From: Syntrophomonadaceae bacterium
GTDB taxonomy: Bacteria; Bacillota; Syntrophomonadia; Syntrophomonadales; Syntrophomonadaceae
Length of the DNA stretch: 64,000 nucleotides
Reading direction: 5' to 3'
NCBI GenBank assembly: GCA_050949885.1
Contig: JBMNGO010000007.1
Location: 103,549-167,548 of the forward strand
Positions 3,964-63,513 of this stretch are shown here, one piece after another. The notes under the pieces are model-generated. The model had not been told where the DNA came from, did no database searches, and was given only the letters and a program-made list of their open reading frames with translations. The first letter of the stretch is position 1. Every line of letters starts with the position of its first letter. Made by a program: the position numbers and the translations under genes.

Positions 3964-4500
3964 ATGCAACAGTTTGAATCAAACGTACAAAAAATATGCC
4001 GCATCTTAGACAGAGTAGCTGGAATATGCATTTTTCTTACCATGCTCCTGGTAGTTGCCAATATTCTTCTGCGGGAGTGCTTTAACCGGCCTATTGTAGG
4101 AGCCTATGAGATGGTTTGCATGCTGACTGCTGCGGCCATTGGCCTGGCGGTAGCCCACTGTGCATTACAGGAAGGGCATATAGCAGTAGATTACCTGGTT
4201 AATATGCTGTCCGACGCCCAAAGGCGTTTGATTGCCGTTATAACCAACTTCTTAGGTTTTACTTTTTGGGCATTGGTCACCTTTTGTTTATTGCGCTATG
4301 GCATCAGCATGATTAATAACGGGATGGTTTCAGCGACTATGCAAATTCCCCTGGCGCCTTTCGTGTTCTTAATTGCCCTGGGTTTTCTGGTTCTCTGCCT
4401 GGTCCTATTCAGTAAAATGGGAGCCCTGATAGTGATTAAAGAAAAAAGTCTGGGTTGGGCACCTGATAAAATTAAGGCCTGGGCGAGGAGTGCACAATGA
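3964..4500 (+). CDS. dctQ: TRAP transporter small permease (DctQ family)
   Basis: 178 aa with about 4 TM segments. Located between the DctP and DctM genes. Its stop overlaps the next start (ATGA). Confidence 0.85.
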   Translation: MQQFESNVQKICRILDRVAGICIFLTMLLVVANILLRECFNRPIVGAYEMVCMLTAAAIGLAVAHCALQEGHIAVDYLVNMLSDAQRRLIAVITNFLGFTFWALVTFCLLRYGISMINNGMVSATMQIPLAPFVFLIALGFLVLCLVLFSKMGALIVIKEKSLGWAPDKIKAWARSAQ

Positions 4501-5810: not shown

Positions 5811-6002
5811 TGTTACAGGGGTACGTCAAGCTGTATAAAAACTATTTCCCCAAATGTTTTCGTCCCACTTAGGGTTTTTCATTGGTGTGTTTAGGGATTA
5901 GCCTTAAAAAACCCTCTGTTTTTTTATAGTATCTCTCTACTTAAGTAAATTGGCTTCATAATTTTTTGACTTTTCATACAGTCTGACGTTCTTACTGTAA
6001 CA
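5811..6002. mobile_element. MITE-like non-autonomous element, copy A (192 bp, imperfect terminal inverted repeats)
   Basis: Left end is TGTTACAGGGGTACGTCAAGC. The reverse complement of the right end is TGTTACAGTAAGAACGTCAGAC. The interior is roughly 80% identical by eye to 63325..63513. It starts 3 nt after the dctM stop. Confidence 0.7.
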
Positions 6003-25576: not shown

Positions 25577-25602
25577 ATCACGGGGACAGGTACCTTGATT
25601 CT
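25577..25602. repeat. dispersed repeat, solo arm (ATCACGGGGACAGGTACCTTGATTCT)
   Basis: Same motif is found at 42908, 49551 and, as an inverted pair, at 50393/50453. Lies 6 nt after the gerXB stop. Confidence 0.75.
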
Positions 25603-26958: not shown

Positions 26959-27627
26959 TGGTGCCAGAGGTGGGACTCGCCTGTACCCGGAGGGTGAACC
27001 CACACGCCTCGCGGCACACGATTACTTATTTTCTTATGGTGCCAGAGGTGGGACTCGCCTGTACCCGGAGGGTGAACCCACACGCCTCGCGGCACACGCC
27101 AGGTGCCGGGTGGGACCGCCTGTCCCGGAGGGTGCCCCCGCCTCGCGGCCCGTCTTACTGGTGCCAGAGGTGGGACTCGCCTGTACCCGGAGGGTGAACC
27201 CACACGCCTCGCGGCACACGATTACTTATTCTCTTATGGTGCCAGAGGTGGGACTCGCCTGTACCCGGAGGGTGAACCCACACGCCTCGCGGCACACGAT
27301 TACTTATTTCTCTTATGGTGCCAGAGGTGGGACTCGCCTGTACCCGGAGGGTGAACCCACACGCCTCGCGGCACACGATTACTTATTCTCTTATGGTGCC
27401 AGAGGTGGGACTCGCCTGTACCCGGAGGGTGAACCCACACGCCTCGCGGCACACGATTACTTATTCTCTTATGGTGCCAGAGGTGGGACTCGCCTGTACC
27501 CGGAGGGTGAACCCACACGCCTCGCGGCACACGATTACTTATTCTCTTATGGTGCCAGAGGTGGGACTCGCCTGTACCCGGAGGGTGAACCCACACGCCT
27601 CGCGGCACACGATTACTTATTCTCTTA
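26959..27627 (-). repeat. tandem array of tRNA-Leu 3'-half-like units (8 units of 78-79 nt plus 1 diverged GC-rich 60-nt unit)
   Basis: Unit boundaries on + coordinates are 26959, 27037, 27159, 27237, 27316, 27394, 27472 and 27550. The diverged unit is 27099..27158. Each unit ends in ...GTCCCACCTCTGGCACCA, identical to the 3' end of the adjacent tRNA. Confidence 0.9.
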
Positions 27628-27712
27628 TGGTGCCAGAGGTGGGACTCGAACCCACACGCCTCGCGGCACACGATTTTGAGTCGCGCTCGTCTGCCAATTC
27701 CGACACTCTGGC
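27628..27712 (-). tRNA. tRNA-Leu (anticodon CAA), class II, CCA encoded
   Basis: Reverse complement folds as GCCAGAG-TG-TCG(GAATTGGCAGA)CGA-G-CGCGA(CTCAAAA)TCGTG, then a 13-nt variable arm, then GTGGG(TTCGAGT)CCCAC-CTCTGGC-ACCA. Confidence 0.9.
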
Positions 27713-35402: not shown

Positions 35403-37046
35403 ATGTACCTGGGTTTCCGGAGATTAGCATTGATAGGATCGGTTTTGGGACTGGCACTAATTGTGGCCGGTATTTTGTTTTTAAATAGGATTGCTGTGTT
35501 TACATCCGGGCCTGCCTCTCGACCATTTAATGCGGGGCTGGTAGGGAAGATAAGCACCCTGGAACCAGCCATCCTTAATTCCATGCAGGAGCGTATCATT
35601 TCTTCAGCTATTTACGAAGGACTAGTTTACTATGAGCAAAATGCCAGTATGGTTAAACCATTGTTGGCTCACAGCTGGGACTATTCCGCAGATGGAAAAA
35701 GCCTTACTATTTTCTTAAAACCGGATGTGTTATTTCATAATGGAAAAAAACTGGGAGCAGGGGACGTAAAAAAAGCGTGGGAGCAAAACTTTGTAACTGC
35801 GTCAGAATGGTCCAATGCCAGCCTATTCCTTACAATTACCGGCGCCCGTGATCTGCTGGAGGGCAAGAACCCGGAAATATCAGGAATTGAGGTGGTAAAT
35901 GACCAGACCCTGAAGATAACTTTTAATGAGCCCAATGCGGCTTTCGTTTACATGCTCACCAATCCAATGTTCTGGGTTTACGACCTTGATGATCAGGTGG
36001 TACCGGCACCTGGTACCGGACAATTTATATTGGAAAAAAACGAAAACAACCAAAAATATATTCTGTCCCGGAACGAGAGATATCATCTGGCCCCACCACT
36101 GCTGGAAACAATCAATATCACTGTATTTGCCAATGATTATCAGGCTCTGGGCGAATACCAGGCAGGGAAACTGGATTATCTGGACACCATACCCCTAAAA
36201 GAAATTAAAAACATCCGGAATAATGACCAGTACCAAAAGCGCTTAATAGAAAAACCCGTTCTTTCAACGTATTCTATCGGTTTTAATTTAAATAAAGCAC
36301 CCTTTGCCGGCAACTATCTGTTGAGAAGAGCCATTAATTATGCAGTTGACCGGGAGGCCATTATTGAAAACGTTATGGGAGGAGCATCCCGTCCCGCTAA
36401 GAGTGCAATACCTGCAGGAGTCGCCGGATACAACCGGGAAATGCCCGGTTATTCCTACAACCCGCAAAAGGCTTTGCAACTGCTTCAAGAGGCCGGGCTC
36501 ACAGAAGCCGATAAACAAAAACCCCTTTACCTTGTCTACAATAACAATGAGGGGCATCGGCTGGTGGCCCAGTCGGTTGCCCAGCAGTTAAGGGACATCG
36601 GCTTGAATGTGGAAACCCAGGCAATGGATTGGGACTCTTACAAAGAGGAGCTCCAACAAATGAATCTAACCCTTTTCCGTTTGGAATGGTATGCCGACTA
36701 TCCTGACCCTGACAGCTTTTTATATAGCCTTTTTCACAGTTGCCAGACCGGAATGAGTAATTTCACCGGATACTTTAACCCCCAGGTAGACAAAATACTG
36801 GATACCTCCCGGGCTGAGGTGATTAGCCACCAGGAGCGTATCAAACTGTTGAACCGGGCGGAACAGATAATTGTTGATGATGCCCCCTGTTTATGGCTTT
36901 TCCAGGGGCAAACCGCCAAGCTTATAGGAAAAGATGTGAAGAAACTAGATATTGATAATATGGGAATGATCAACTGGGCTACTCTGGAATTGAAGCCAGC
37001 CAGCCAGGCAGCCGCCGACAGCCTGGGGGAAAACAGGCAAAATTAG
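35403..37046 (+). CDS. ABC transporter substrate-binding protein, family 5 (peptide/nickel type), orphan
   Basis: 547 aa with an N-terminal TM anchor and SBP_bac_5-like sequence. No adjacent permease or ATPase genes. Confidence 0.75.
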   Translation: MYLGFRRLALIGSVLGLALIVAGILFLNRIAVFTSGPASRPFNAGLVGKISTLEPAILNSMQERIISSAIYEGLVYYEQNASMVKPLLAHSWDYSADGKSLTIFLKPDVLFHNGKKLGAGDVKKAWEQNFVTASEWSNASLFLTITGARDLLEGKNPEISGIEVVNDQTLKITFNEPNAAFVYMLTNPMFWVYDLDDQVVPAPGTGQFILEKNENNQKYILSRNERYHLAPPLLETINITVFANDYQALGEYQAGKLDYLDTIPLKEIKNIRNNDQYQKRLIEKPVLSTYSIGFNLNKAPFAGNYLLRRAINYAVDREAIIENVMGGASRPAKSAIPAGVAGYNREMPGYSYNPQKALQLLQEAGLTEADKQKPLYLVYNNNEGHRLVAQSVAQQLRDIGLNVETQAMDWDSYKEELQQMNLTLFRLEWYADYPDPDSFLYSLFHSCQTGMSNFTGYFNPQVDKILDTSRAEVISHQERIKLLNRAEQIIVDDAPCLWLFQGQTAKLIGKDVKKLDIDNMGMINWATLELKPASQAAADSLGENRQN

Positions 37047-37466
37047 AGAGCATAAAAACAGCCTCCAATAAATAAAGTATTTAAAGATGTAGGACCCAAA
37101 GCCAAAATCTTAATATAGAGCCTAAAGGACTACGCTACCTGGTTAACCGATGAAATCCCAATCAGGTTTTTCATCATGCTTACAAGATGTAAGTCAAATA
37201 CTGAATTCCGGGAAAAATAGCAGATTTAGGCCTTATAGCCCAAAACAAATAAATTTTCAGGCAAAGCCTTTTTTTAATTAAAATTAATGACAATATTTTA
37301 TTATAGTGTTAAACTTATATAGTAATTATTGGTTCACAGTACATCTTGCATTCTCCAAATTACAAAAACAAATCTAATGTTATTGAACAAAGCTAAAATT
37401 TGCAGCATATTATATACTGCTTGTGCATTTTATGCCAACTTTTAACGCATATAAAGAGGGTTATTT

Positions 37467-38396
37467 ATGAAAAAAGCGTTTATTATATTAGTTTTAGTAT
37501 TAGCCATGTGCAGTTCCCTTTTGGCCGGAACGATGGCTAATTATACTATCAGTTTGGATAATTTTGCTTCAGGAAGCGTTGTGGGCAAGGAATTTATCTT
37601 TCTAGAGTCCGGCACCGACACGTTTCAGGATGATATTAAAATAGCACCGACTGAGACTATCATCTGGCAGTTTGCAGTTAAAAATTATGACGGCAACTTG
37701 GTTACAGAAACCGATCTATACTACAATCTAGCCTTTGATGTAATTGCCACCCCCGGCAAAAGTGCTATTGATCCTCTGATTATCAAGATCAAGGATGGGG
37801 CTGGCACTGTTGTGGGTACAGTGCAAGGAACAGGCACACTTGATGTAGAGGGGAGCTTCCCTTTGTCGGAAACTGGTCAGAGTGCCTCTTATACAGTCGA
37901 AATATACTGGCCCAGCAACGATGAAACTGATATTAATTATGCCGGCCATAATTTTGGAACTACTATCAATGTCTCTGCTGCTGCATCACAACTGCCCTTC
38001 GGGGGAGGAGAAGTAGATCCTCCAGAGCCCCCAGAGCCCAGCGGCATTGCGGTTCTATTTGAGGCAGGAAAACCGTGGGACCAAAGTGGAGTTGATAAAT
38101 ATTATTTCTACATTACAATCACCAACAACACTGCTGAGATGATAACCAATTGGGAAATTGAGTTTTTGTTGAACGATATTATCGATTCCTATTATGAAGC
38201 CAGGGGTGACTACAGTGGTTTACCTGTTGGACAGTATCGCTTCTTGCATCCCCAGTTCTATAACCAAGACATTCCCAGCGGCGGCAGCGTACAGTTTAAC
38301 GGCATAATTAACGGTACAGGAAATACTCCTATTACATCTGTCAAGGTAAACAACCAAAATGCTGAAGTGACCTGTGAATACAATGTGATATTTTGA
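37467..38396 (+). CDS. SipW-cognate secreted protein: TasA/CalY-like N-terminal domain + Pro-rich linker + carbohydrate-binding-module-like C-terminal domain
   Basis: Signal peptide ends ...LLAGTMANYT (GTxAxF/Y SipW-type motif). Residues 30-175 are paralogous to 39159..39686. The C-terminal domain contains NWEIEF...GGSVQFNG, which resembles CBM2 (not verified). Confidence 0.75.
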   Translation: MKKAFIILVLVLAMCSSLLAGTMANYTISLDNFASGSVVGKEFIFLESGTDTFQDDIKIAPTETIIWQFAVKNYDGNLVTETDLYYNLAFDVIATPGKSAIDPLIIKIKDGAGTVVGTVQGTGTLDVEGSFPLSETGQSASYTVEIYWPSNDETDINYAGHNFGTTINVSAAASQLPFGGGEVDPPEPPEPSGIAVLFEAGKPWDQSGVDKYYFYITITNNTAEMITNWEIEFLLNDIIDSYYEARGDYSGLPVGQYRFLHPQFYNQDIPSGGSVQFNGIINGTGNTPITSVKVNNQNAEVTCEYNVIF

Positions 38397-38423
38397 TTAT
38401 TAGCAGCCCGGAGAGGATATAAA

Positions 38424-38921
38424 ATGAGAGCAAAAATTATTTTTATTATTTTCCTGGTATCCTCTGTTCTTATATCTTCTATACAAGAAACCTATTCAGG
38501 ATACTATACAGATTCCGGCTTTTCAATAGATGTGGGGCCTAATTCCGCTATTATTGAAGACCGATATAATGTGTATTTGCAAAACCAGATGCTTGGACAA
38601 CAGGAATTAGCCTTGGAAACACCCAAGCCAGAATCCGATCTCAATTTGGTACCTGGCCCTGATGAAATGTCAGACATAACTGAACCTGAACAGGAGGACA
38701 CTAACACAACATCTGATGATAGCACTGTGGAAGGAACTGAGCAAACGGATGGAGACGTCGAAGAAAATGAACCCTTGGGCGAATCCGGCAACGAACCAGC
38801 GCAACTGGAAACCCTTGAAGAGACTAATGATATTTATGCAGAAGCGGGGGACTCTAATGAAACTGACAATAGCCCCGACGAGACTATAGATACTCCTGAA
38901 ACGCCTGCTGAAGCTGAATAG
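38424..38921 (+). CDS. secreted highly acidic (D/E/T-rich) protein
   Basis: N-terminal signal/TM segment, then a low-complexity acidic tail. Tightly linked within the operon. Confidence 0.6.
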   Translation: MRAKIIFIIFLVSSVLISSIQETYSGYYTDSGFSIDVGPNSAIIEDRYNVYLQNQMLGQQELALETPKPESDLNLVPGPDEMSDITEPEQEDTNTTSDDSTVEGTEQTDGDVEENEPLGESGNEPAQLETLEETNDIYAEAGDSNETDNSPDETIDTPETPAEAE

Positions 38922-39158
38922 TGCAATTAAGAAAAGGAGGGAGAGAGGGATAAAAATGAAAACAACTTAATTGCTTGATGTTTATACAGTCGTTTACTTT
39001 AACTCCATGCGATATAGTTGAAAATGCATTGTAATGGTAAACCGGGCGAAAGTTCGGAGCACAAAGCTATAGGGTCTAAGTCCGTTGCGGATAGGATAGC
39101 CAGCTGCCAATGCAAATATATTGCATATTTCATTAAGATTGCAGGGAGGTTTTCTAAA

Positions 39159-39686
39159 ATGAAAAGGACATTGTTTATTTTTTCACTCTTGGTACTTATT
39201 GCATTTTGTGTAAATTCCGGCACTTTTGCCTTATACACCACAACCATTGATACACTTGCTGCAGGTAGTGTTGTGGCTAAAGAATTCATACTCGTAGAGG
39301 GAGGAACTGACAGTTTTACAGAGAACGTGAAAATTGCCCCAACCGAAACTAAAACTATGAGCTTTAGCGTAAAAAATTATGATGGAACAATAATTTCTGA
39401 AACTGCAATGGATCTTGACTTCACTGTTACAATTGCCGCAGCTGATGGAAAAGATGCAATTGACCCCTTGGAGGTTACCGTAATGAAGGGTGAAAATGTG
39501 CTTGGCACTAAGACTGGTACCGGTACGCTTACCTTTGTAGACGAGTTCACATTGAGTGAACTAGGCCAGGAGCATACCTATGACGTTAAAATAGAATGGC
39601 CTAGCAATAACGCAGTAGATATTGACTTTGCCGGGGCTGATTTCGGATCGGCAGTAACAGTATCTGTTACCGGAACTCAAAAATAA
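39159..39686 (+). CDS. SipW-cognate secreted TasA/CalY-like protein
   Basis: The start is moved to ATG 39159, 9 nt after GGGAGG. Signal ends ...NSGTFALYTT. Shares blocks with 37467 (AKEFIL-E-GTDSF, KIAPTET, VKNYDG, IEWPSN). Confidence 0.8.
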   Translation: MKRTLFIFSLLVLIAFCVNSGTFALYTTTIDTLAAGSVVAKEFILVEGGTDSFTENVKIAPTETKTMSFSVKNYDGTIISETAMDLDFTVTIAAADGKDAIDPLEVTVMKGENVLGTKTGTGTLTFVDEFTLSELGQEHTYDVKIEWPSNNAVDIDFAGADFGSAVTVSVTGTQK

Positions 39687-39696
39687 GTTGATGAAT

Positions 39697-39728
39697 AACA
39701 GCTGTCAGATAAGACGGCTGTTGTTTTT
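39697..39728 (+). terminator. intrinsic terminator/attenuator after the TasA-like gene, followed by a second 11-bp hairpin at 39737..39761
   Basis: AACAGCTGTC...GACGGCTGTT stem followed by GTTTTT. Then GAACCACCTGC-TGG-GCAGGTGGTTC. Confidence 0.65.
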
Positions 39729-39920
39729 GTAAAGCAGAACCACCTGCTGGGCAGGTGGTTCAAAAGGCTTTTGGGTAGGAAAAATCCTCTATTTTGAACA
39801 AGGCAGATTTTGCCATCTTACTGTGGAACAGAAGAGAAAAAATAAAATTGATAGTCTGTCAACATTGAAATTATCAATGCGCATAGCCTTGCACCAAACT
39901 ACAGAGAGGAGCAGTGCTTT

Positions 39921-40463
39921 ATGCGGGAGATGATGAATTACACAACAGATGAACAGATTGAAAAAATGCGTGAGGAACTTCGGCAGGCAAAAGAAAAAAA
40001 AGATAAAAAAAGTGGTAGTATTTTCAGCATGCAACAGTCTGACGCAAAACGGGTGCTGATAAAAGGAGCCGGCTGGTTTTTTTTCATTGTAATCGTTCTG
40101 CTTTTATTATCCACGCTGTATTCTGTGTTGCTGGCTAAAAGCAAAGGTGAGACTCCTTGCTTGGTTGGCTACCAGTTCTATGTGGTTAAATCCAATAGCA
40201 TGGCGCCTACATTCAAAACCGGGACAGTTATTTTGTCCAAAACCCCTGAGGACAGCTCCAAGCTGAATGTGGGGGACATTGTAACATTTAAAAACGCCAA
40301 TGGTGCGATAGTTACGCATAGGATTATTGAGGTCATAAAGACCGAAGGTGGACAAGTCAAATACCGTACCAAAGGTGATAACCCCATCAATTCTCCGGAT
40401 CGGGAGCTTTTGGATCCGCAACAAATCTTAGCCAGGGTAATTGCTAAAATTCCTTTAACATAA
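39921..40463 (+). CDS. sipW: signal peptidase I, SipW (archaeal/ER) type
   Basis: TM anchor, then catalytic Ser box KSNSMAPTF, His box IVTHRII and KGDNPINSPD. Confidence 0.85.
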   Translation: MREMMNYTTDEQIEKMREELRQAKEKKDKKSGSIFSMQQSDAKRVLIKGAGWFFFIVIVLLLLSTLYSVLLAKSKGETPCLVGYQFYVVKSNSMAPTFKTGTVILSKTPEDSSKLNVGDIVTFKNANGAIVTHRIIEVIKTEGGQVKYRTKGDNPINSPDRELLDPQQILARVIAKIPLT

Positions 40464-40487
40464 TGGCTGTTAAAAAGGAGAAACCTT

Positions 40488-41480
40488 ATGGTACCTGAAC
40501 AGATTGCAAATACGCCAGTAGAGGATGCTCAGAACGTTGTTTTTATGGAAAAACTTACTTCATGTGAGTTCTTTCTTAAAGATAAGGGGGCTCCTCAACT
40601 TGTTTTGTATGACATTGGGCTATCATTCGAAAGAGGTCAAGTGTGGGGTATAACCGGGAATAATCTGTTTGAAATCAAACTGCTGGCGGAAATTATGGCC
40701 AATATAAAACCTTATCGCGCCGGGAAGTGCGTTCTTCTCGAACGTGGCATGATGAGGCACAAACGCATTATCCTTCCCCATGTCTTTTACATCGGCAGTA
40801 CTGAGATGGTTTACAATAATATGAACGTGCTGGAATTTTTAATGTTTGCTACAGCTAAATTTCCCGGAGAAAAGGTAGACCACCAGGAGCAGTTATTTGA
40901 GTATTTAATCAGCATCGGACTTAAAAGGATATCCCTGTCTCCTATTTATATGCTTTCCAAAGAGCAAAAAGCGGTTATAATCATGCTGGTGGCCGCCTAC
41001 TCAGATAGTCAGCTTATTGTCCATAATCTACCGGATTATTATTATAATGATACACTGATTCCAGCAATACAGCAGATTGCCCAACTCATTGCAGAAAAAG
41101 GAAAAACCTTAGTCATAACAACCAGAACTTCTGATTTAATTGAAAAGGCCTGCAGCCACATTCTTTTTTTACTGAATGGCACCGTACACTACCAGGGTGA
41201 TGTTCTTCATTTTTGCCACAAGTACGACAAAAACATCCTGACCATACAAGATAATAATGCTGGGGAGATTGCAAAAGTACTCAGAGAGACGCTTCCCGGT
41301 TATCAGTATGATCTGGAAGCAGGCAACCTAATTGTACGTTCCTGCCAGGATGAGGAAGAAAATCCGAATCTCATCTACGAAAGAATTATTGAGTCAGGGT
41401 TTGCTCCCGCAAAAATTCAAATCAACAAGAAAAATGTTAAAAACGCGCGCGAGCAAATAATAAAACATTATGATTTATAA
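40488..41480 (+). CDS. ABC-ATPase-like protein with degenerate nucleotide-binding motifs
   Basis: Overall ABC fold order is preserved. Walker A reads GITGNNLFEIK (no GK[ST]), the signature reads LSKEQ (not LSGGQ), and Walker B reads LIVHNLPD (no D-E). Confidence 0.65.
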   Translation: MVPEQIANTPVEDAQNVVFMEKLTSCEFFLKDKGAPQLVLYDIGLSFERGQVWGITGNNLFEIKLLAEIMANIKPYRAGKCVLLERGMMRHKRIILPHVFYIGSTEMVYNNMNVLEFLMFATAKFPGEKVDHQEQLFEYLISIGLKRISLSPIYMLSKEQKAVIIMLVAAYSDSQLIVHNLPDYYYNDTLIPAIQQIAQLIAEKGKTLVITTRTSDLIEKACSHILFLLNGTVHYQGDVLHFCHKYDKNILTIQDNNAGEIAKVLRETLPGYQYDLEAGNLIVRSCQDEEENPNLIYERIIESGFAPAKIQINKKNVKNAREQIIKHYDL

Positions 41481-42903
41481 AAACAGCTACTTTCAAAAAG
41501 AACTGCGACAAGCTTACATAGACGACTCTATCGGCGCCAAAAGAAAATCTCTTTATGCGCTTTTAATAGGACTCGTTTCCTTTGCGGTGCATTTTTTTCT
41601 GCGTACTATGTCGGAAAGCATACTGGCAGATATAATGCCCCATCTTATTCAACCAAGTTACTTCTCCACCTTGTATACATATATGACAGTATCAATTTAC
41701 TTATATACCCTGTATTATATTGTTTATTATGACTATCTTTCCTTTGTGGAAATTAGAAAAAATCGGTGGTACCTGCTTGCCAAAATGGGCTATCAACCTC
41801 TTTCCATGGTTTTTTCCAAGCTGGCCGCATTCATTTATTCAATTTGGTTTATGTATAGCTGTGGTTTTATATTTACTATTGGGCTGACAATGCTGATAAA
41901 GTATACATTTATTCACGAATATATGCTGGCCCTCTATCTTGCGGGTTTGCTTGATATAATCGTCATTGGTGTTGTATCTATTACATTATCCTTGTTTATC
42001 TATGGAACCAAAACCGCAAGATATATTATTTTCTTTTTCACAGTTGTTTTACTTATGACTAAATCCCTTTCAGGGTACTCAGCGCTAACAGGCAACAGGA
42101 TTTTAATGCAAAACGCCCTAAATCTTATAGATTTTTCACAAACGACGTATTTACTCTTTTCCGCTGCTATCATCCTTGCTTGTACCCTAATATGCATTTT
42201 TAGGGCACAAAACATTGGCAAATATTACACCATGCCGGAGGAACTGTACGTTAACATAATACCGGAAGGTGCCTCTGTGTTCCGAATTGAGGATTCGGTG
42301 AAGAAAATATACCATCTCGGGCCTAAAGACAAGTATGATGGCAGTAGAATTATTGATCTGGTTATAACCTCTTTATTTGTGGTTATTATTTGTTCTACAC
42401 TCGTTTTAAATCTTTTTGTTCTTATTTCCTCTGCCTCCCAGCTTAGTAAGGAGGTTACGATATTTGATCATATTCCCTATATTTTTCAGTCAGATACCAT
42501 GGAACCCTGCATAATGAAAAACGACCTTGCCTTATTTAGAAGAGTAGATCGCAATGAACCAATAAAGACAGGAGATGTCGTCCTTTTTCGGGACAATAAA
42601 ATTGTATATGTTGAAAGAGTGATGGCAAAAGAGGACGACCGGTATATAGTGGATATTGATTGCTATCCGGCTATGTCACAGGTAGGGGCTATGGAAAAAA
42701 GCCTTTCCCGTGAAGCGATTTATGGCGTCTTCACCTACAGAAGCCGCTGGCTGGGAGCCTTGATTCTATTTGCCAATACGATTTTTGGCAGATTCTTCTT
42801 GCTGTTGCTTCCAGCGGTTATTCTGTTTTTCTATAATCCCATCCGAACTTTTATTGCTAACCTGATACGCTACATACAATATCACTCAGAAGTACCCAGC
42901 TAG
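41470..42903 (+). CDS. polytopic membrane protein (ABC-2-permease-like) fused to a C-terminal S26 signal-peptidase-like domain
   Basis: Has 6-8 TM segments, then SDTMEPCIMKNDLALF ... GDVVLFRDNKIVYVERV, which aligns by eye with the SipW Ser and His boxes. At those positions Ser is replaced by Thr and His is missing. A final TM segment follows. Confidence 0.65.
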   Translation: MIYKNSYFQKELRQAYIDDSIGAKRKSLYALLIGLVSFAVHFFLRTMSESILADIMPHLIQPSYFSTLYTYMTVSIYLYTLYYIVYYDYLSFVEIRKNRWYLLAKMGYQPLSMVFSKLAAFIYSIWFMYSCGFIFTIGLTMLIKYTFIHEYMLALYLAGLLDIIVIGVVSITLSLFIYGTKTARYIIFFFTVVLLMTKSLSGYSALTGNRILMQNALNLIDFSQTTYLLFSAAIILACTLICIFRAQNIGKYYTMPEELYVNIIPEGASVFRIEDSVKKIYHLGPKDKYDGSRIIDLVITSLFVVIICSTLVLNLFVLISSASQLSKEVTIFDHIPYIFQSDTMEPCIMKNDLALFRRVDRNEPIKTGDVVLFRDNKIVYVERVMAKEDDRYIVDIDCYPAMSQVGAMEKSLSREAIYGVFTYRSRWLGALILFANTIFGRFFLLLLPAVILFFYNPIRTFIANLIRYIQYHSEVPS

Positions 42904-42907
42904 GCGA

Positions 42908-42932
42908 ATCATAGGGACAGGTACCTTGAGTT
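42908..42932. repeat. dispersed repeat, solo arm (ATCATAGGGACAGGTACCTTGAGTT)
   Basis: Same family as 25577, 49551 and 50393. Lies 5 nt after the stop of 41470..42903. Confidence 0.7.
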
Positions 42933-43080: not shown

Positions 43081-43110
43081 TTGACATTTGAGTTATTAGT
43101 ATTGTATAAT
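43081..43110 (+). promoter_or_regulatory. sigma-A promoter of tRNA-Leu(GAG)
   Basis: TTGACA, an 18-nt spacer, then TATAAT, 31 nt upstream of the tRNA 5' end. Confidence 0.7.
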
Positions 43111-43141: not shown

Positions 43142-43226
43142 GTCGGAGTGGTGGAACGGGCAGACACGTACGTTTGAGGGGCGTATCCTTAGCCGGGTGC
43201 GGGTTCAAGTCCCGCCTCCGACACCA
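43142..43226 (+). tRNA. tRNA-Leu (anticodon GAG), class II, CCA encoded
   Basis: Folds as GTCGGAG-TG-GTG(GAACGGGCAGA)CAC-G-TACGT(TTGAGGG)GCGTA, then a 13-nt variable region, then GCGGG(TTCAAGT)CCCGC-CTCCGAC-ACCA. Confidence 0.85.
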
Positions 43227-50376: not shown

Positions 50377-50476
50377 GGGGACAGGTATTATCACGGGGAC
50401 AGGCACCTTGATTCTTCTGGAAAAATTATGGACGTCATCGCACCTAGCTGAAAAGAATCAAGGCACCTGTCCCCGT
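50377..50476. repeat. complete palindromic copy of the dispersed repeat (24-bp arms, 36-nt spacer) with a partial tandem duplication at its left edge
   Basis: Arms are 50393..50416 ACGGGGACAGGCACCTTGATTCTT and 50453..50476 AAGAATCAAGGCACCTGTCCCCGT, with 2 central mismatches. GGGGACAGGTATTA is duplicated at 50377. Confidence 0.8.
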
Positions 50477-56764: not shown

Positions 56765-56828
56765 GACGGTTCTGTTGGCACCAAGGGGGGCGCAAACATG
56801 CGCCCCCCTTGGTGCCAACAGAACCGTC
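56765..56828. repeat. perfect 29-bp inverted repeat with 6-nt loop between convergent genes
   Basis: GACGGTTCTGTTGGCACCAAGGGGGGCGC-AAACAT-GCGCCCCCCTTGGTGCCAACAGAACCGTC. No flanking U-tract. Confidence 0.85.
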
Positions 56829-63324: not shown

Positions 63325-63513
63325 TGTTACACGGGGCCGTCAGGCAGTGTAAAAACTATTTTCCCAAAGTTTTTCGTCCCACTTAGGGTTTTATAACTGG
63401 TGGGTTTAGGGATTAGCCTCAAAAAACCCTCTGATTTTTAGTTTTTCTCCACTAAAGTAAATTGACTTCTTAATTCTTTGACTTTTTACACAGCCTGACG
63501 TCCCCGTGTAACA
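63325..63513. mobile_element. MITE-like non-autonomous element, copy B (189 bp, near-perfect 21-bp terminal inverted repeats)
   Basis: Left end is TGTTACACGGGGCCGTCAGGC. The reverse complement of the right end is TGTTACACGGGGACGTCAGGC (1 mismatch). The interior matches 5811..6002. Sits between two convergent stop codons. Confidence 0.8.

Follow-up and report, generated by a model that had tools for sequence, protein, structure and literature searches.

Among the closest described counterparts of the locus analysed here are the tapA-sipW-tasA operon of Bacillus subtilis and the sipW-tasA-calY operon of Bacillus cereus, in which a dedicated SipW signal peptidase is encoded together with its substrates, the substrates carry a G-T-x-A cleavage motif followed by an aromatic residue at P2', and a major fibre component is accompanied by minor or accessory ones (PMC10151520, PMC9674648, PMC10269814). 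It is the aromatic P2' residue that makes TasA a substrate of SipW rather than of LepB (PMC10269814), and strand complementation has been demonstrated for the N-terminus of TapA with TasA (PMC10151520). Here we describe a six-gene locus, g1 to g6, in a 64-kb stretch of DNA from a Syntrophomonadaceae bacterium (contig JBMNGO010000007.1; the whole stretch of 64,000 nucleotides is referred to as the window, and positions are counted from its first letter). The locus shares with the Bacillus operons the dedicated SipW (g4), the form of its substrates (g1, g2 and g3) and the presence of major and minor or accessory components. It differs from them in the order of its genes and in that g1 and g3 are built on much smaller beta-sandwiches of ~145 aa that stay below the threshold of the TasA family PF12389. 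Furthermore, the Bacillus operons contain no transporter-like genes, no second peptidase-like domain, no carbohydrate-binding module (CBM) fusion and no cyclic di-GMP (c-di-GMP) riboswitch, all of which we find here. We are highly confident in the descriptive core of our analysis, namely that the locus is a conserved SipW-dependent surface-protein cassette that includes a module made of a pseudo-ATP-binding cassette (ABC) protein, g5, and a permease fused to a pseudo-peptidase of the S26 family, g6. How SipW/TasA-type fibres are nucleated, ordered and retained on the cell is an unsettled question; the current view, to our knowledge, is that they form outside the cell and that no membrane machine is dedicated to their assembly. 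Some 60 species-level genomes of Clostridia tie a SipW-type fibre locus to this two-gene module of dead enzymes, which is a candidate for the missing platform.

Three further groups of systems bear on the comparison. [quoted passage not shown] However, SipA is a free-standing protein with a single transmembrane (TM) helix, is of bacterial Ser/Lys ancestry and belongs to sortase-dependent covalent pili, whereas g6 descends from the SipW/SEC11 (Ser/His) lineage, carries a fused six-TM ABC-2-like domain, and is encoded with a pseudo-nucleotide-binding domain (pseudo-NBD) partner and an active SipW alongside. The g5-g6 pair resembles the ABC-2/type V exporters (PmtCD, NosFY, CcmAB, ABCG) in the NBD subfamily with which g5 aligns best and in the arrangement as adjacent, overlapping genes, and the model of the g6 N-terminal domain can be superposed, with weak E-values, on their six-TM permeases; it departs from them in that all ATPase motifs are lost in every g5 ortholog and in that the permease bears a C-terminal peptidase-like ectodomain. 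Known 'degenerate-site' ABC transporters retain one competent site (PMC7756269). Finally, AbpX/TasA-superfamily loci combine small acidic beta-sandwich subunits that have an aromatic residue at mature position 2 with minor subunits, tip proteins and a dedicated signal peptidase I (SPase I) of unusual architecture, and have c-di-GMP enzyme links in Bacillota (bioRxiv 10.64898/2026.01.04.697558). As described, these loci have a single ten-TM SPase I, a DUF5305 accessory protein and, often, S-layer homology (SLH) or LPXTG anchors, our comparison with the cassette being one of description only; the preprint mentions no ABC-like ATPase, pseudo-peptidase or CBM2 fusion (bioRxiv 10.64898/2026.01.04.697558). 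The parts of the cassette are of kinds already known: fibre loci of the SipW type, a pilus assembly factor that is an inactive homologue of signal peptidases, degenerate ABC sites, and c-di-GMP-I riboswitches before adhesin genes. What appears to be new is their combination, in which a pseudo-peptidase of the SipW lineage is fused to an ABC-2-like permease, has a fully dead NBD as its partner, and is encoded beside an active SipW and its substrates. A full-text literature search returned no description of the g5-g6 module or of its combination with SipW, and within the library searched no paper was found that links a c-di-GMP-I riboswitch to SipW-type loci.

Related loci were collected from one genome per GTDB species, which yielded 62 loci; three more were added through exact-protein look-ups. 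The 62 loci come nearly all from Clostridia, with Desulfosporosinus, Christensenellaceae, Oscillospiraceae, Mageeibacillus, Anaerobacterium, Lutispora, Gracilibacter and Dichloromethanomonas among them, and the cultured carriers include Desulfosporosinus orientis, D. youngiae, Oxobacter pfennigii and Anaerobacterium chartisolvens. As judged by phmmer searches of the six window proteins against all open reading frames (ORFs) of these loci, the order g1-(g2)-g3-g4-g5-g6 on a single strand holds nearly everywhere. Genes for g4 and g5 adjoin g6 in the same orientation in 57 of the 59 loci that have at least 1.7 kb of upstream sequence. Both exceptions have a degenerate g6: in one it is truncated, with neither g4 nor g5 upstream (L057:8019-9104), and in the other, which retains g4 and g5, a probable frameshift divides it between two ORFs (L062:7299-8707). 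Where at least 4.5 kb of upstream sequence is available, subunit genes are found upstream in 50 of 51 loci, and at least two subunit-like genes in 48 of the 51. An earlier reading of this DNA by a model (the first-pass annotation) had named the lack of co-conservation of g5 and g6 with sipW and the subunit genes as something that would refute its interpretation; the two genes are, by the counts above, co-conserved with both (57/59 and 48/51 loci). The genes flanking the cassette vary among genomes, and the conserved unit is therefore the cassette and not its neighbourhood. No sortase or LPXTG gene was detected within the cassette, either in the phmmer/ORF survey or among the called genes.

The evidence that g5 derives from an ABC ATPase and has lost its active sites comes from several comparisons. 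Matches in the PDB include HisP (1b0u, E = 3e-10), 1vpl (E = 1.6e-6) and LipB (5x7k, E = 2.6e-5). Twenty-four NCBIfam ABC ATPase models match g5 at E < 1, all of them far under their cut-offs, and the best are of the GldA, PmtA, DrrA and NodI kind (GldA, E = 3e-11); the Pfam family ABC_tran does not match. The extra C-terminal domain of the DrrA/GldA/PmtA-type subfamily is kept (residues ~250-330), and the protein has no predicted TM helices and is cytoplasmic. The PDB alignments place GITGNN-LFEIK of g5 on the Walker A motif GLIGPNGAGKTT, LSKEQ on LSGGQ, IVHNLPD on LLFDEPT and TTRT on VTHE. We then took column statistics from 60 g5 orthologs found in the related loci. In this family the canonical Walker A GxxGxGK[ST] is replaced by W-G-I-x-G-x-S-x-F-E-I-K, the Gln of the Q-loop by an invariant Tyr101, the signature LSGGQ by L-[TS]-K-E-[EQ]-K, the Walker B hhhhDE by I-V-F-Asn180-L-P-[ED], and the His of the H-loop by Q, K, T or R; Walker A GK[ST], Q-loop Gln, LSGGQ, Walker B Asp-Glu and H-loop His are thus absent in 60 out of 60 orthologs. 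The first-pass annotation had judged Walker A, signature and Walker B degenerate by eye, and neither the PDB alignments nor the orthologs rescue any of the motifs. The residues that stand in for them are themselves conserved (W53, G54, G57, E62, Y101, Q133, N180 and P182), which argues for a constrained pseudo-ATPase and not for a decaying gene. As judged by sequence comparison, g5 is an ABC NBD fold in which all ATPase motifs have been replaced family-wide, and such a total loss in a strongly conserved ABC partner bears on how pseudoenzymes evolve.

The AlphaFold2 (AF2) model of g6 has a mean predicted local distance difference test (pLDDT) score of 80.3 and, together with the homology searches, divides the protein into a six-TM ABC-2-like domain (residues 1-250), a cytoplasmic linker (251-290), a TM helix (291-322), an S26/SipW-like beta domain (334-425) and a highly conserved C-terminal TM region with the motif NRWLGALILFANTxxGR (426-473), the part from residue 291 on making up an entire SipW-like unit. 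Foldseek matches the N-terminal domain to PmtD (6xjh), NosY (7o0z), CcmB (8ce1) and ABCG25 with probability 1.0 and target-normalised TM-scores of 0.5-0.56, but with E-values of only 0.01-0.1. No Pfam or NCBIfam model, ABC2_membrane included, matches this domain, and its free-standing relatives have no Pfam family either. The C-terminal domain matches the SipW model NF046067 over residues 301-459 (E = 7e-8) as well as TIGR02227 (E = 1.2e-6), in both cases under the cut-off; it also aligns with SEC11C (E = 0.029), SDTMEP falling on SGSMEP and VYVERV on PIVHRV. Its best Foldseek match is S. pyogenes SipA (4n31), followed by SEC11C, SpsB and LepB (probability 1.0 for each of these four) and by LexA and UmuD. 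In an alignment of the core family (37 sequences of 41-69% identity), T343 at the nucleophile position is invariant and E382 at the position of the His is conserved in at least 90% of the sequences; the GDN box is replaced by VDIDxYP (residues 394-400), with an invariant D395 and a D397 that at least 90% of the sequences retain. The claim of the first-pass annotation that the C-terminus of g6 is SipW-like, with Thr in place of Ser and with no His, is therefore upheld by the SEC11C alignment, the family alignment and Foldseek alike.

NCBI names g6 an 'S26 family signal peptidase', a label that is right as a statement of homology and probably wrong as one of activity. The exact-sequence look-up of g6 returned no record; the homology search found an identical protein (P0001) in a metagenome-assembled genome of Syntrophomonadaceae. 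We also considered whether the C-terminal domain is a recent duplicate of g4, and rejected it given only 22% identity over 50 residues. Some fused members of the family carry a C-terminal extension of 150-200 aa that has no Pfam match: P0253 (668 aa), P0267 (621 aa), P0290 (659 aa) and L056:391-2427 (678 aa).

The cassette also encodes a signal peptidase that retains its catalytic residues. g4 scores 86.8 bits against TIGR02228 (cut-off 51.85) and matches the SipW model NF046067 with an E-value of 1.2e-29; the catalytic residues are S93 (in SNSMAP), H133 (in THR) and D153 (in GDN), and there is one TM helix, at residues 53-71. The earlier description of g4 as a canonical SipW recognisable by these three boxes is confirmed by the above-cut-off TIGR02228 score and by the residues themselves: g4 is a bona fide SipW signal peptidase I of the archaeal/endoplasmic reticulum type, and is predicted to be active. 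Its likely substrates are the products of the three genes that open the cassette. The cleavage sites read GTMA/NY in g1, ETYS/GY in g2 and GTFA/LY in g3, with an aromatic P2' residue in all three, and the motif that g1, g2 and g3 share is GT[LFM][AS]-x-[YF]-T (family consensus GTLA-x-YT). The end of the TasA signal, GGGTWA/AFND, resembles that of g1 and g3, where G-T-x-A is followed by x-[YF]-T.

Of the three secreted proteins, g3 is the simplest, consisting of a SipW-type signal (..SGTFA/LYT) and a beta-sandwich of ~145 aa. Its AF2 model (pLDDT 83.5) shows the signal helix followed by a sandwich of 9-10 strands; residues 29-37, located just past the predicted cleavage site, are unstructured (pLDDT < 50). 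We found more than 200 homologs at 55-79% identity, almost none of which are named by their source databases, and consider g3 a candidate major fibre subunit. g1 is made up of a SipW-type signal (..AGTMA/NYT), a beta-sandwich domain paralogous to g3, a Pro/Glu linker (PPEPPEP) and a CBM2-like C-terminal domain, so the signal, the linker and the carbohydrate-binding-module-like domain that had been read from the letters are all present. The two proteins are 41% identical over 175 residues (E = 2e-45), which bears out the view of g3 as a shorter paralog of the N-terminal part of g1. The window copy of g1 falls slightly under the cut-off of Pfam CBM_2 (PF00553; 23.3 bits against 24, E = 8e-5), and all 22 of the 22 g1 orthologs match that family at E ≤ 0.01, the best at E = 7.3e-19. 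The C-terminal domain is thus a putative glycan-binding module of the CBM2 family, and g1 is a candidate tip adhesin or anchor subunit.

The third secreted protein, g2, had been described as secreted and extremely acidic. Both properties hold (41 Asp and Glu against 4 Lys and Arg), but the description missed that g2 is more than an acidic protein, namely a miniature substrate of the SipW type: it is built from a signal peptide, the SipW-type motif (ETYS/GYYT), a conserved segment of ~18 aa and a variable, very acidic tail. Across loci its conservation is limited to the signal peptide and GTLSxYTSxxSFxxxIxPD, that is, the SipW-type motif and ~18 further residues, after which the protein encoded at this position either ends or runs on as a variable acidic or Pro/Thr/Glu tail. 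Its length varies accordingly from 43-55 aa in Desulfosporosinus to as much as 264 aa elsewhere (for examples other than the window copy see L001:5640-5771, L014:5564-5707 and L015:4944-5738). Neither Pfam nor NCBIfam gives a match for g2. Cleavage would leave hardly more of g2 than a beta-prone strand. By analogy with TapA, we regard the protein as a candidate cap or nucleator that would work through strand complementation; it may alternatively be a secreted peptide.

c-di-GMP is a biofilm signal, and c-di-GMP-I (GEMM-I) riboswitches control adhesin and pilus genes of Clostridia. The first-pass annotation did not report that an aptamer of this class lies between g2 and g3, 47 nt ahead of the g3 ATG; it matches the full length of RF01051 with 67.5 bits (gathering score 35, E = 4.7e-12) and is the sole riboswitch that Rfam finds in the window. 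As in the adhesin and pilus riboswitches, a class I aptamer is thus located in the 5' leader of a surface-protein gene, but here it sits inside the cassette before g3, and other genomes have it ahead of g1, in some cases in tandem. The c-di-GMP-I family or its GGC variant is present before g1 and/or g3 in seven of the 33 other loci scanned (L004, L008, L015, L030, L034, L049 and L053, with the tandem in L008 at 4000-4086 and 4299-4385); no copy turned up in those of the scanned loci that come from Desulfosporosinus or Oxobacter. We predict on this basis that the cassette is under c-di-GMP control in this genome, and the riboswitch offers a simple handle for induction. In D. orientis, whose cassette has no riboswitch, a gene for a PilJ-GGDEF diguanylate cyclase (L001:1537-3090) is located ~1.5 kb upstream of g1, possibly another link to c-di-GMP. 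A TATAGT box at 39013-39018 would place the start of transcription at approximately the first base of the aptamer, while the fold of 39015-39175, which covers the expression platform, is uninformative (z-score -1.3). The start codon of g3 is the ATG at 39159 and not the TTG at 39018: the longer, TTG-initiated ORF overlaps the RNA element and is not the g3 gene.

Downstream of g3, the pair of terminator or attenuator hairpins noticed in the first pass is borne out by sequence and by RNAfold, the first 90 nt past the g3 stop codon folding with -41 kcal/mol, and most of the 24 other loci that we folded have a similar hairpin and T-run behind g3. Riboswitch and terminator both agree with a surface structure that is regulated and whose major subunit is strongly expressed. 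The likely layout is a structural part, g1-g2-[riboswitch]-g3, with high expression of g3, followed by g4-g5-g6, which are reached by read-through or have a promoter of their own. Independent transcription of g5 and g6 was another finding by which the first-pass annotation would have been refuted; the terminator does not part the two genes from sipW, and the last three genes are tightly packed (24 nt between g4 and g5, and an 11-nt overlap of g5 and g6).

From these data we infer fibre formation, a g5-g6 complex of defined stoichiometry, peptide binding by g6 and a role of the complex in assembly or anchoring, and we put the probability that the cassette makes a SipW-processed extracellular fibre or adhesin for which g5-g6 serves as a non-catalytic assembly or anchoring platform at about one half. 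g4 would remove the three signal peptides, each followed by its aromatic P2' residue. g3, with its own riboswitch and a terminator behind it, would be the abundant major subunit and would polymerise outside the cell; g1, the paralogous subunit in which a flexible linker leads to a CBM2-like domain for glycan binding, would be the tip adhesin or the wall anchor; and the mini-substrate g2 would serve as cap or nucleator in the manner of strand complementation by TapA. g5 and g6 would form a membrane complex that descends from an ABC-2-type exporter and has lost ATP hydrolysis, a dimer of the pseudo-NBD g5 holding two g6 permease domains, g5(2)-g6(2). Each g6 would display on the outer face a SipW-like domain with the S26 fold kept and the catalytic Ser/His gone, and this dead peptidase domain may bind the SipW-type cleavage region, or the new N-terminal strand, without cutting it, by beta-augmentation in the S26 groove. 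The platform would in this way keep subunits at the membrane and pass them on for ordered polymerisation or anchoring. The same role has been proposed for the inactive SipA in the assembly of streptococcal pili. The suggestion of the first-pass annotation that g5 and g6 are a dedicated secretion, anchoring or chaperone module, whose peptidase-like domain may bind the SipW-type signal or pro-peptide without cleaving it, is supported and seems largely right, with SipA, which it had not named, as precedent and the mechanism argued by analogy. If the assembly platform is real, g6 is a second, independent case, after SipA in sortase pili, of a signal peptidase that became a non-catalytic factor of fibre assembly. 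A more speculative version, to which we give a low probability, regards g5-g6 as a 'fossil' ABC machine: the dead NBD dimer and the ABC-2 domain would couple to an external dead peptidase that captures donor strands, forming the base and gate of a Gram-positive fibre built by donor-strand exchange, and the former nucleotide pocket might sense a cytoplasmic ligand. Sortase-independent Gram-positive fibres would then gain a dedicated assembly platform, which is not known for TasA-type systems.

Several observations weigh against a fibre-assembly platform. SipA is an imperfect precedent, its own mechanism not having been worked out, and a mutation meant to block its cleft left polymerisation going (PMC4049620). 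That g3 forms filaments is something that we only infer. The conserved terminator after g3 may make g4-g6 a transcription unit apart from g1-g3, or one that is reached from them by read-through. The conserved T343, E382 and D395/D397 of g6 could mean an unconventional catalytic site. A distant relative of the g5-g6 pair occurs at L066:3812-5850, where a 373-aa NBD-like protein that is 23% identical to g5 and has VMVNDPNF as its Walker B overlaps a 305-aa permease, one of the free-standing relatives of the g6 N-terminal domain; the permease has no peptidase domain, and neither sipW nor subunit genes are found in the vicinity. The module is then not intrinsically tied to fibres, and the dead ABC pair may have existed before it was recruited to the fibre locus. 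Finally, the similarity of the proposed subunits to TasA is weak. PF12389 (Peptidase_M73) matches neither g1 nor g3 at E ≤ 1, and is sub-threshold in the six of 42 g3 orthologs in which it is seen (best E = 0.0032, 17.7 bits, cut-off 22.5). hhalign of the g3 family against a 32-sequence TasA alignment gives a probability of 79.9% and an E-value of 1.4e-5 over 53 columns only, which correspond to the signal peptide and the first strands. The Foldseek search with the g3 model returns generic beta-sandwiches, with TasA (5of1/8aur) absent from the top 50.

The first-pass annotation had called g1 and g3 'TasA/CalY-like'. What stands of this is the SipW-type signal with its aromatic P2' residue and the adjacency of sipW; the similarity at the level of the family is weak and sub-threshold. 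No TasA or SipW-cognate-signal model of NCBIfam matches g1, g3 or the 42 orthologs, and phmmer searches of the PDB sequences with g1 and g3, as well as a search with the g3-family profile, give chance-level matches only. When g1 is compared with the TasA alignment by hhalign (probability 40.7%), the signal peptide alone aligns, and an hhalign comparison with a single TasA sequence likewise covers no more than the signal peptide. Because the Foldseek matches of g3 are generic (PPC, GOLD, the C-terminal domain of CPE, CBM36 and BcsB) and do not include TasA, we have not filed g1 and g3 as members of the TasA family and regard them as substrates of the SipW type whose body is a small beta-sandwich; they may belong to the TasA superfamily, and they might be closer to the AbpX branch of the 2026 preprint. 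The same generic beta-sandwich and carbohydrate-binding-like matches, the lack of any above-threshold TasA match and the CBM2 domain of g1 would also suit an alternative in which g1 and g3 are monomeric secreted or wall-associated glycan-binding proteins and g5-g6 is a device for their retention or sorting, or is unrelated to polymerisation. We consider this unlikely, since the arrangement is that of known fibre loci: the major and minor subunits are paralogs, a SipW is dedicated to them, the gene of the short subunit is followed by a terminator, and there is control by c-di-GMP. Furthermore, the similarity to TasA covers the signal and first strands and is collinear, PF12389 positions 4-95 corresponding to residues 2-96 of the Oxobacter ortholog of g3, and the unstructured segment just past the cleavage site of g3 is what a donor strand would look like in such a model.

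The residues conserved in g6 raise the alternative that it is an active, unconventional peptidase or transpeptidase that uses Thr343, Glu382 and Asp395/397, for example in a second processing or ligation step on g2 or g1, which would make g5-g6 a dedicated machine for processing and export. Besides being invariant or nearly so in the 37 core sequences, these residues occupy the positions of the Ser, His and Asp of SEC11/SipW, and the pocket motif S-x-T-M-E-P is kept. The wider fused family speaks otherwise. A profile search of 1.84 billion representatives yielded 86 proteins at E ≤ 1e-30, many of them fragments; in the divergent fused relatives, Thr predominates at the nucleophile position, where a few have Ser and others M, R, K or D, and the base position is occupied by E, S, A, Q, K, R or M. 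In ~90 representatives of this wider fused family, His is never found at the base position, whereas free-standing relatives (190-290 aa) retain SxSM and HR. Variation at the Thr and Glu positions, the constant absence of the His and the intact boxes of the free-standing relatives favour a non-catalytic domain, and they weaken the case for Thr/Glu as a conserved alternative dyad. A Thr nucleophile that is not at the N-terminus is rare, an active SipW is encoded two genes upstream, and the partner NBD, with every ATPase motif lost, would be unable to power export. An active g6 is for these reasons distinctly improbable.

The strong conservation of the g5 replacement residues, which implies a retained function at the former nucleotide site, can also be read as the mark of a signalling or gating device. 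In such a device, modelled on the mechanotransmitting ABC systems FtsEX and MacB, the state of the pseudo-NBD or a cytoplasmic ligand would be relayed to the outer peptidase-like domain, or the reverse, and would switch fibre assembly; the retained DrrA/GldA-type C-terminal domain of g5, the RNA-level c-di-GMP control in some genomes and the GGDEF gene upstream of the cassette in D. orientis would be in keeping with it. We regard it as very unlikely: no ligand-binding motif was identified, the conservation could reflect the dimer and transmembrane-domain interfaces alone, and we know of no experimental case in which an ABC module that has lost both of its sites completely serves as a sensor. 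Least probable of all is that g5-g6 clears or sequesters cleaved SipW-type signal peptides and so keeps the membrane free of hydrophobic fragments when g3 is highly expressed, for although a peptidase-like groove beside a transporter-like domain adjoins sipW, and EcsAB has been linked to signal-peptide processing in Bacillus, the pair has neither ATPase motifs to provide the energy for extrusion nor catalytic residues for degradation.

The coordinates of the cassette and of the features around it are collected in Table 1. An ORF check of the window found all six co-oriented genes where the first-pass annotation had placed them.

Table 1. Features of the cassette and its immediate surroundings, in window coordinates.
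Feature	Position	Strand	Basis or remark
AT-rich upstream region, 420 bp	37047..37466	+	presumed promoter/regulatory region; GC 0.32 at 37000-37499
g1, 309 aa	37467..38396	+	ORF check
g2, 165 aa	38424..38921	+	ORF check
c-di-GMP-I riboswitch aptamer	39026..39111	+	RF01051 match
g3, 175 aa	39159..39686	+	ORF check
Terminator-like hairpin with T-run (~39693-39729), then second GC-rich hairpin (core 39738-39762)	39693..39771	+	sequence and RNAfold
g4, 180 aa, SipW-type signal peptidase I	39921..40463	+	TIGR02228, motifs
g5, 330 aa, NBD-fold protein	40488..41480	+	PDB alignments
g6, 477 aa, permease and S26-like domain	41470..42903	+	SipW model NF046067, AF2/Foldseek
Short dispersed motif ATCAYRGGGACAGGYACCTTGA, one copy	42908..42929	+	3 copies in the window
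tRNA-Leu(GAG), bounding the cassette downstream	43142..43226	+	ARAGORN and Rfam

The region upstream of g1 is AT-rich, as had been noted; it contains several sigma-70-like sites (for example at 37287-37315), and Rfam has zero matches in it. On the other side of the cassette, both ARAGORN and Rfam confirm the tRNA-Leu gene, which is preceded by a perfect sigma-70 consensus site at 43081-43110. The dispersed repeat that had been reported to begin at 42908 exists as a repeated motif, but one of only ~20 nt: ATCAYRGGGACAGGYACCTTGA occurs at 25577-25594, 42908-42925 and 50390-50407, all on the plus strand (three copies in the window, where 0.06 are expected), and the copy at 42908 sits 5 nt past the stop codon of g6. 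A search for a long dispersed repeat at this position with 14-nt seeds and a minimum length of 30 nt found none. As regards the accessory island with which the first-pass annotation found the context compatible, the differences in GC content are only modest. In several unrelated genomes, tRNA genes are likewise located within a few hundred bases downstream of g6 (L008:9583-10011, L009:5898-6323, L048:6948-7111).

Three other features of the window lie away from the cassette. A tandem array at 27153-27648 comprises 6.3 copies of a 78-nt unit at 99% identity and runs into a tRNA-Leu(CAA) gene on the minus strand (27628-27712); weaker copies of the unit reach back to ~26873, and the unit may be a repeated partial tRNA sequence. 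At 56765-56828 there is an inverted repeat, GACGGTTCTGTTGGCACCAAGGGGGGCGCA / TGCGCCCCCCTTGGTGCCAACAGAACCGTC, whose 30-nt arms match perfectly and are separated by 4 nt. Finally, an element of ~115 nt occurs twice, at 5811-5924 and at 63325-63439, the two copies being 57.5 kb apart and 76-87% identical.

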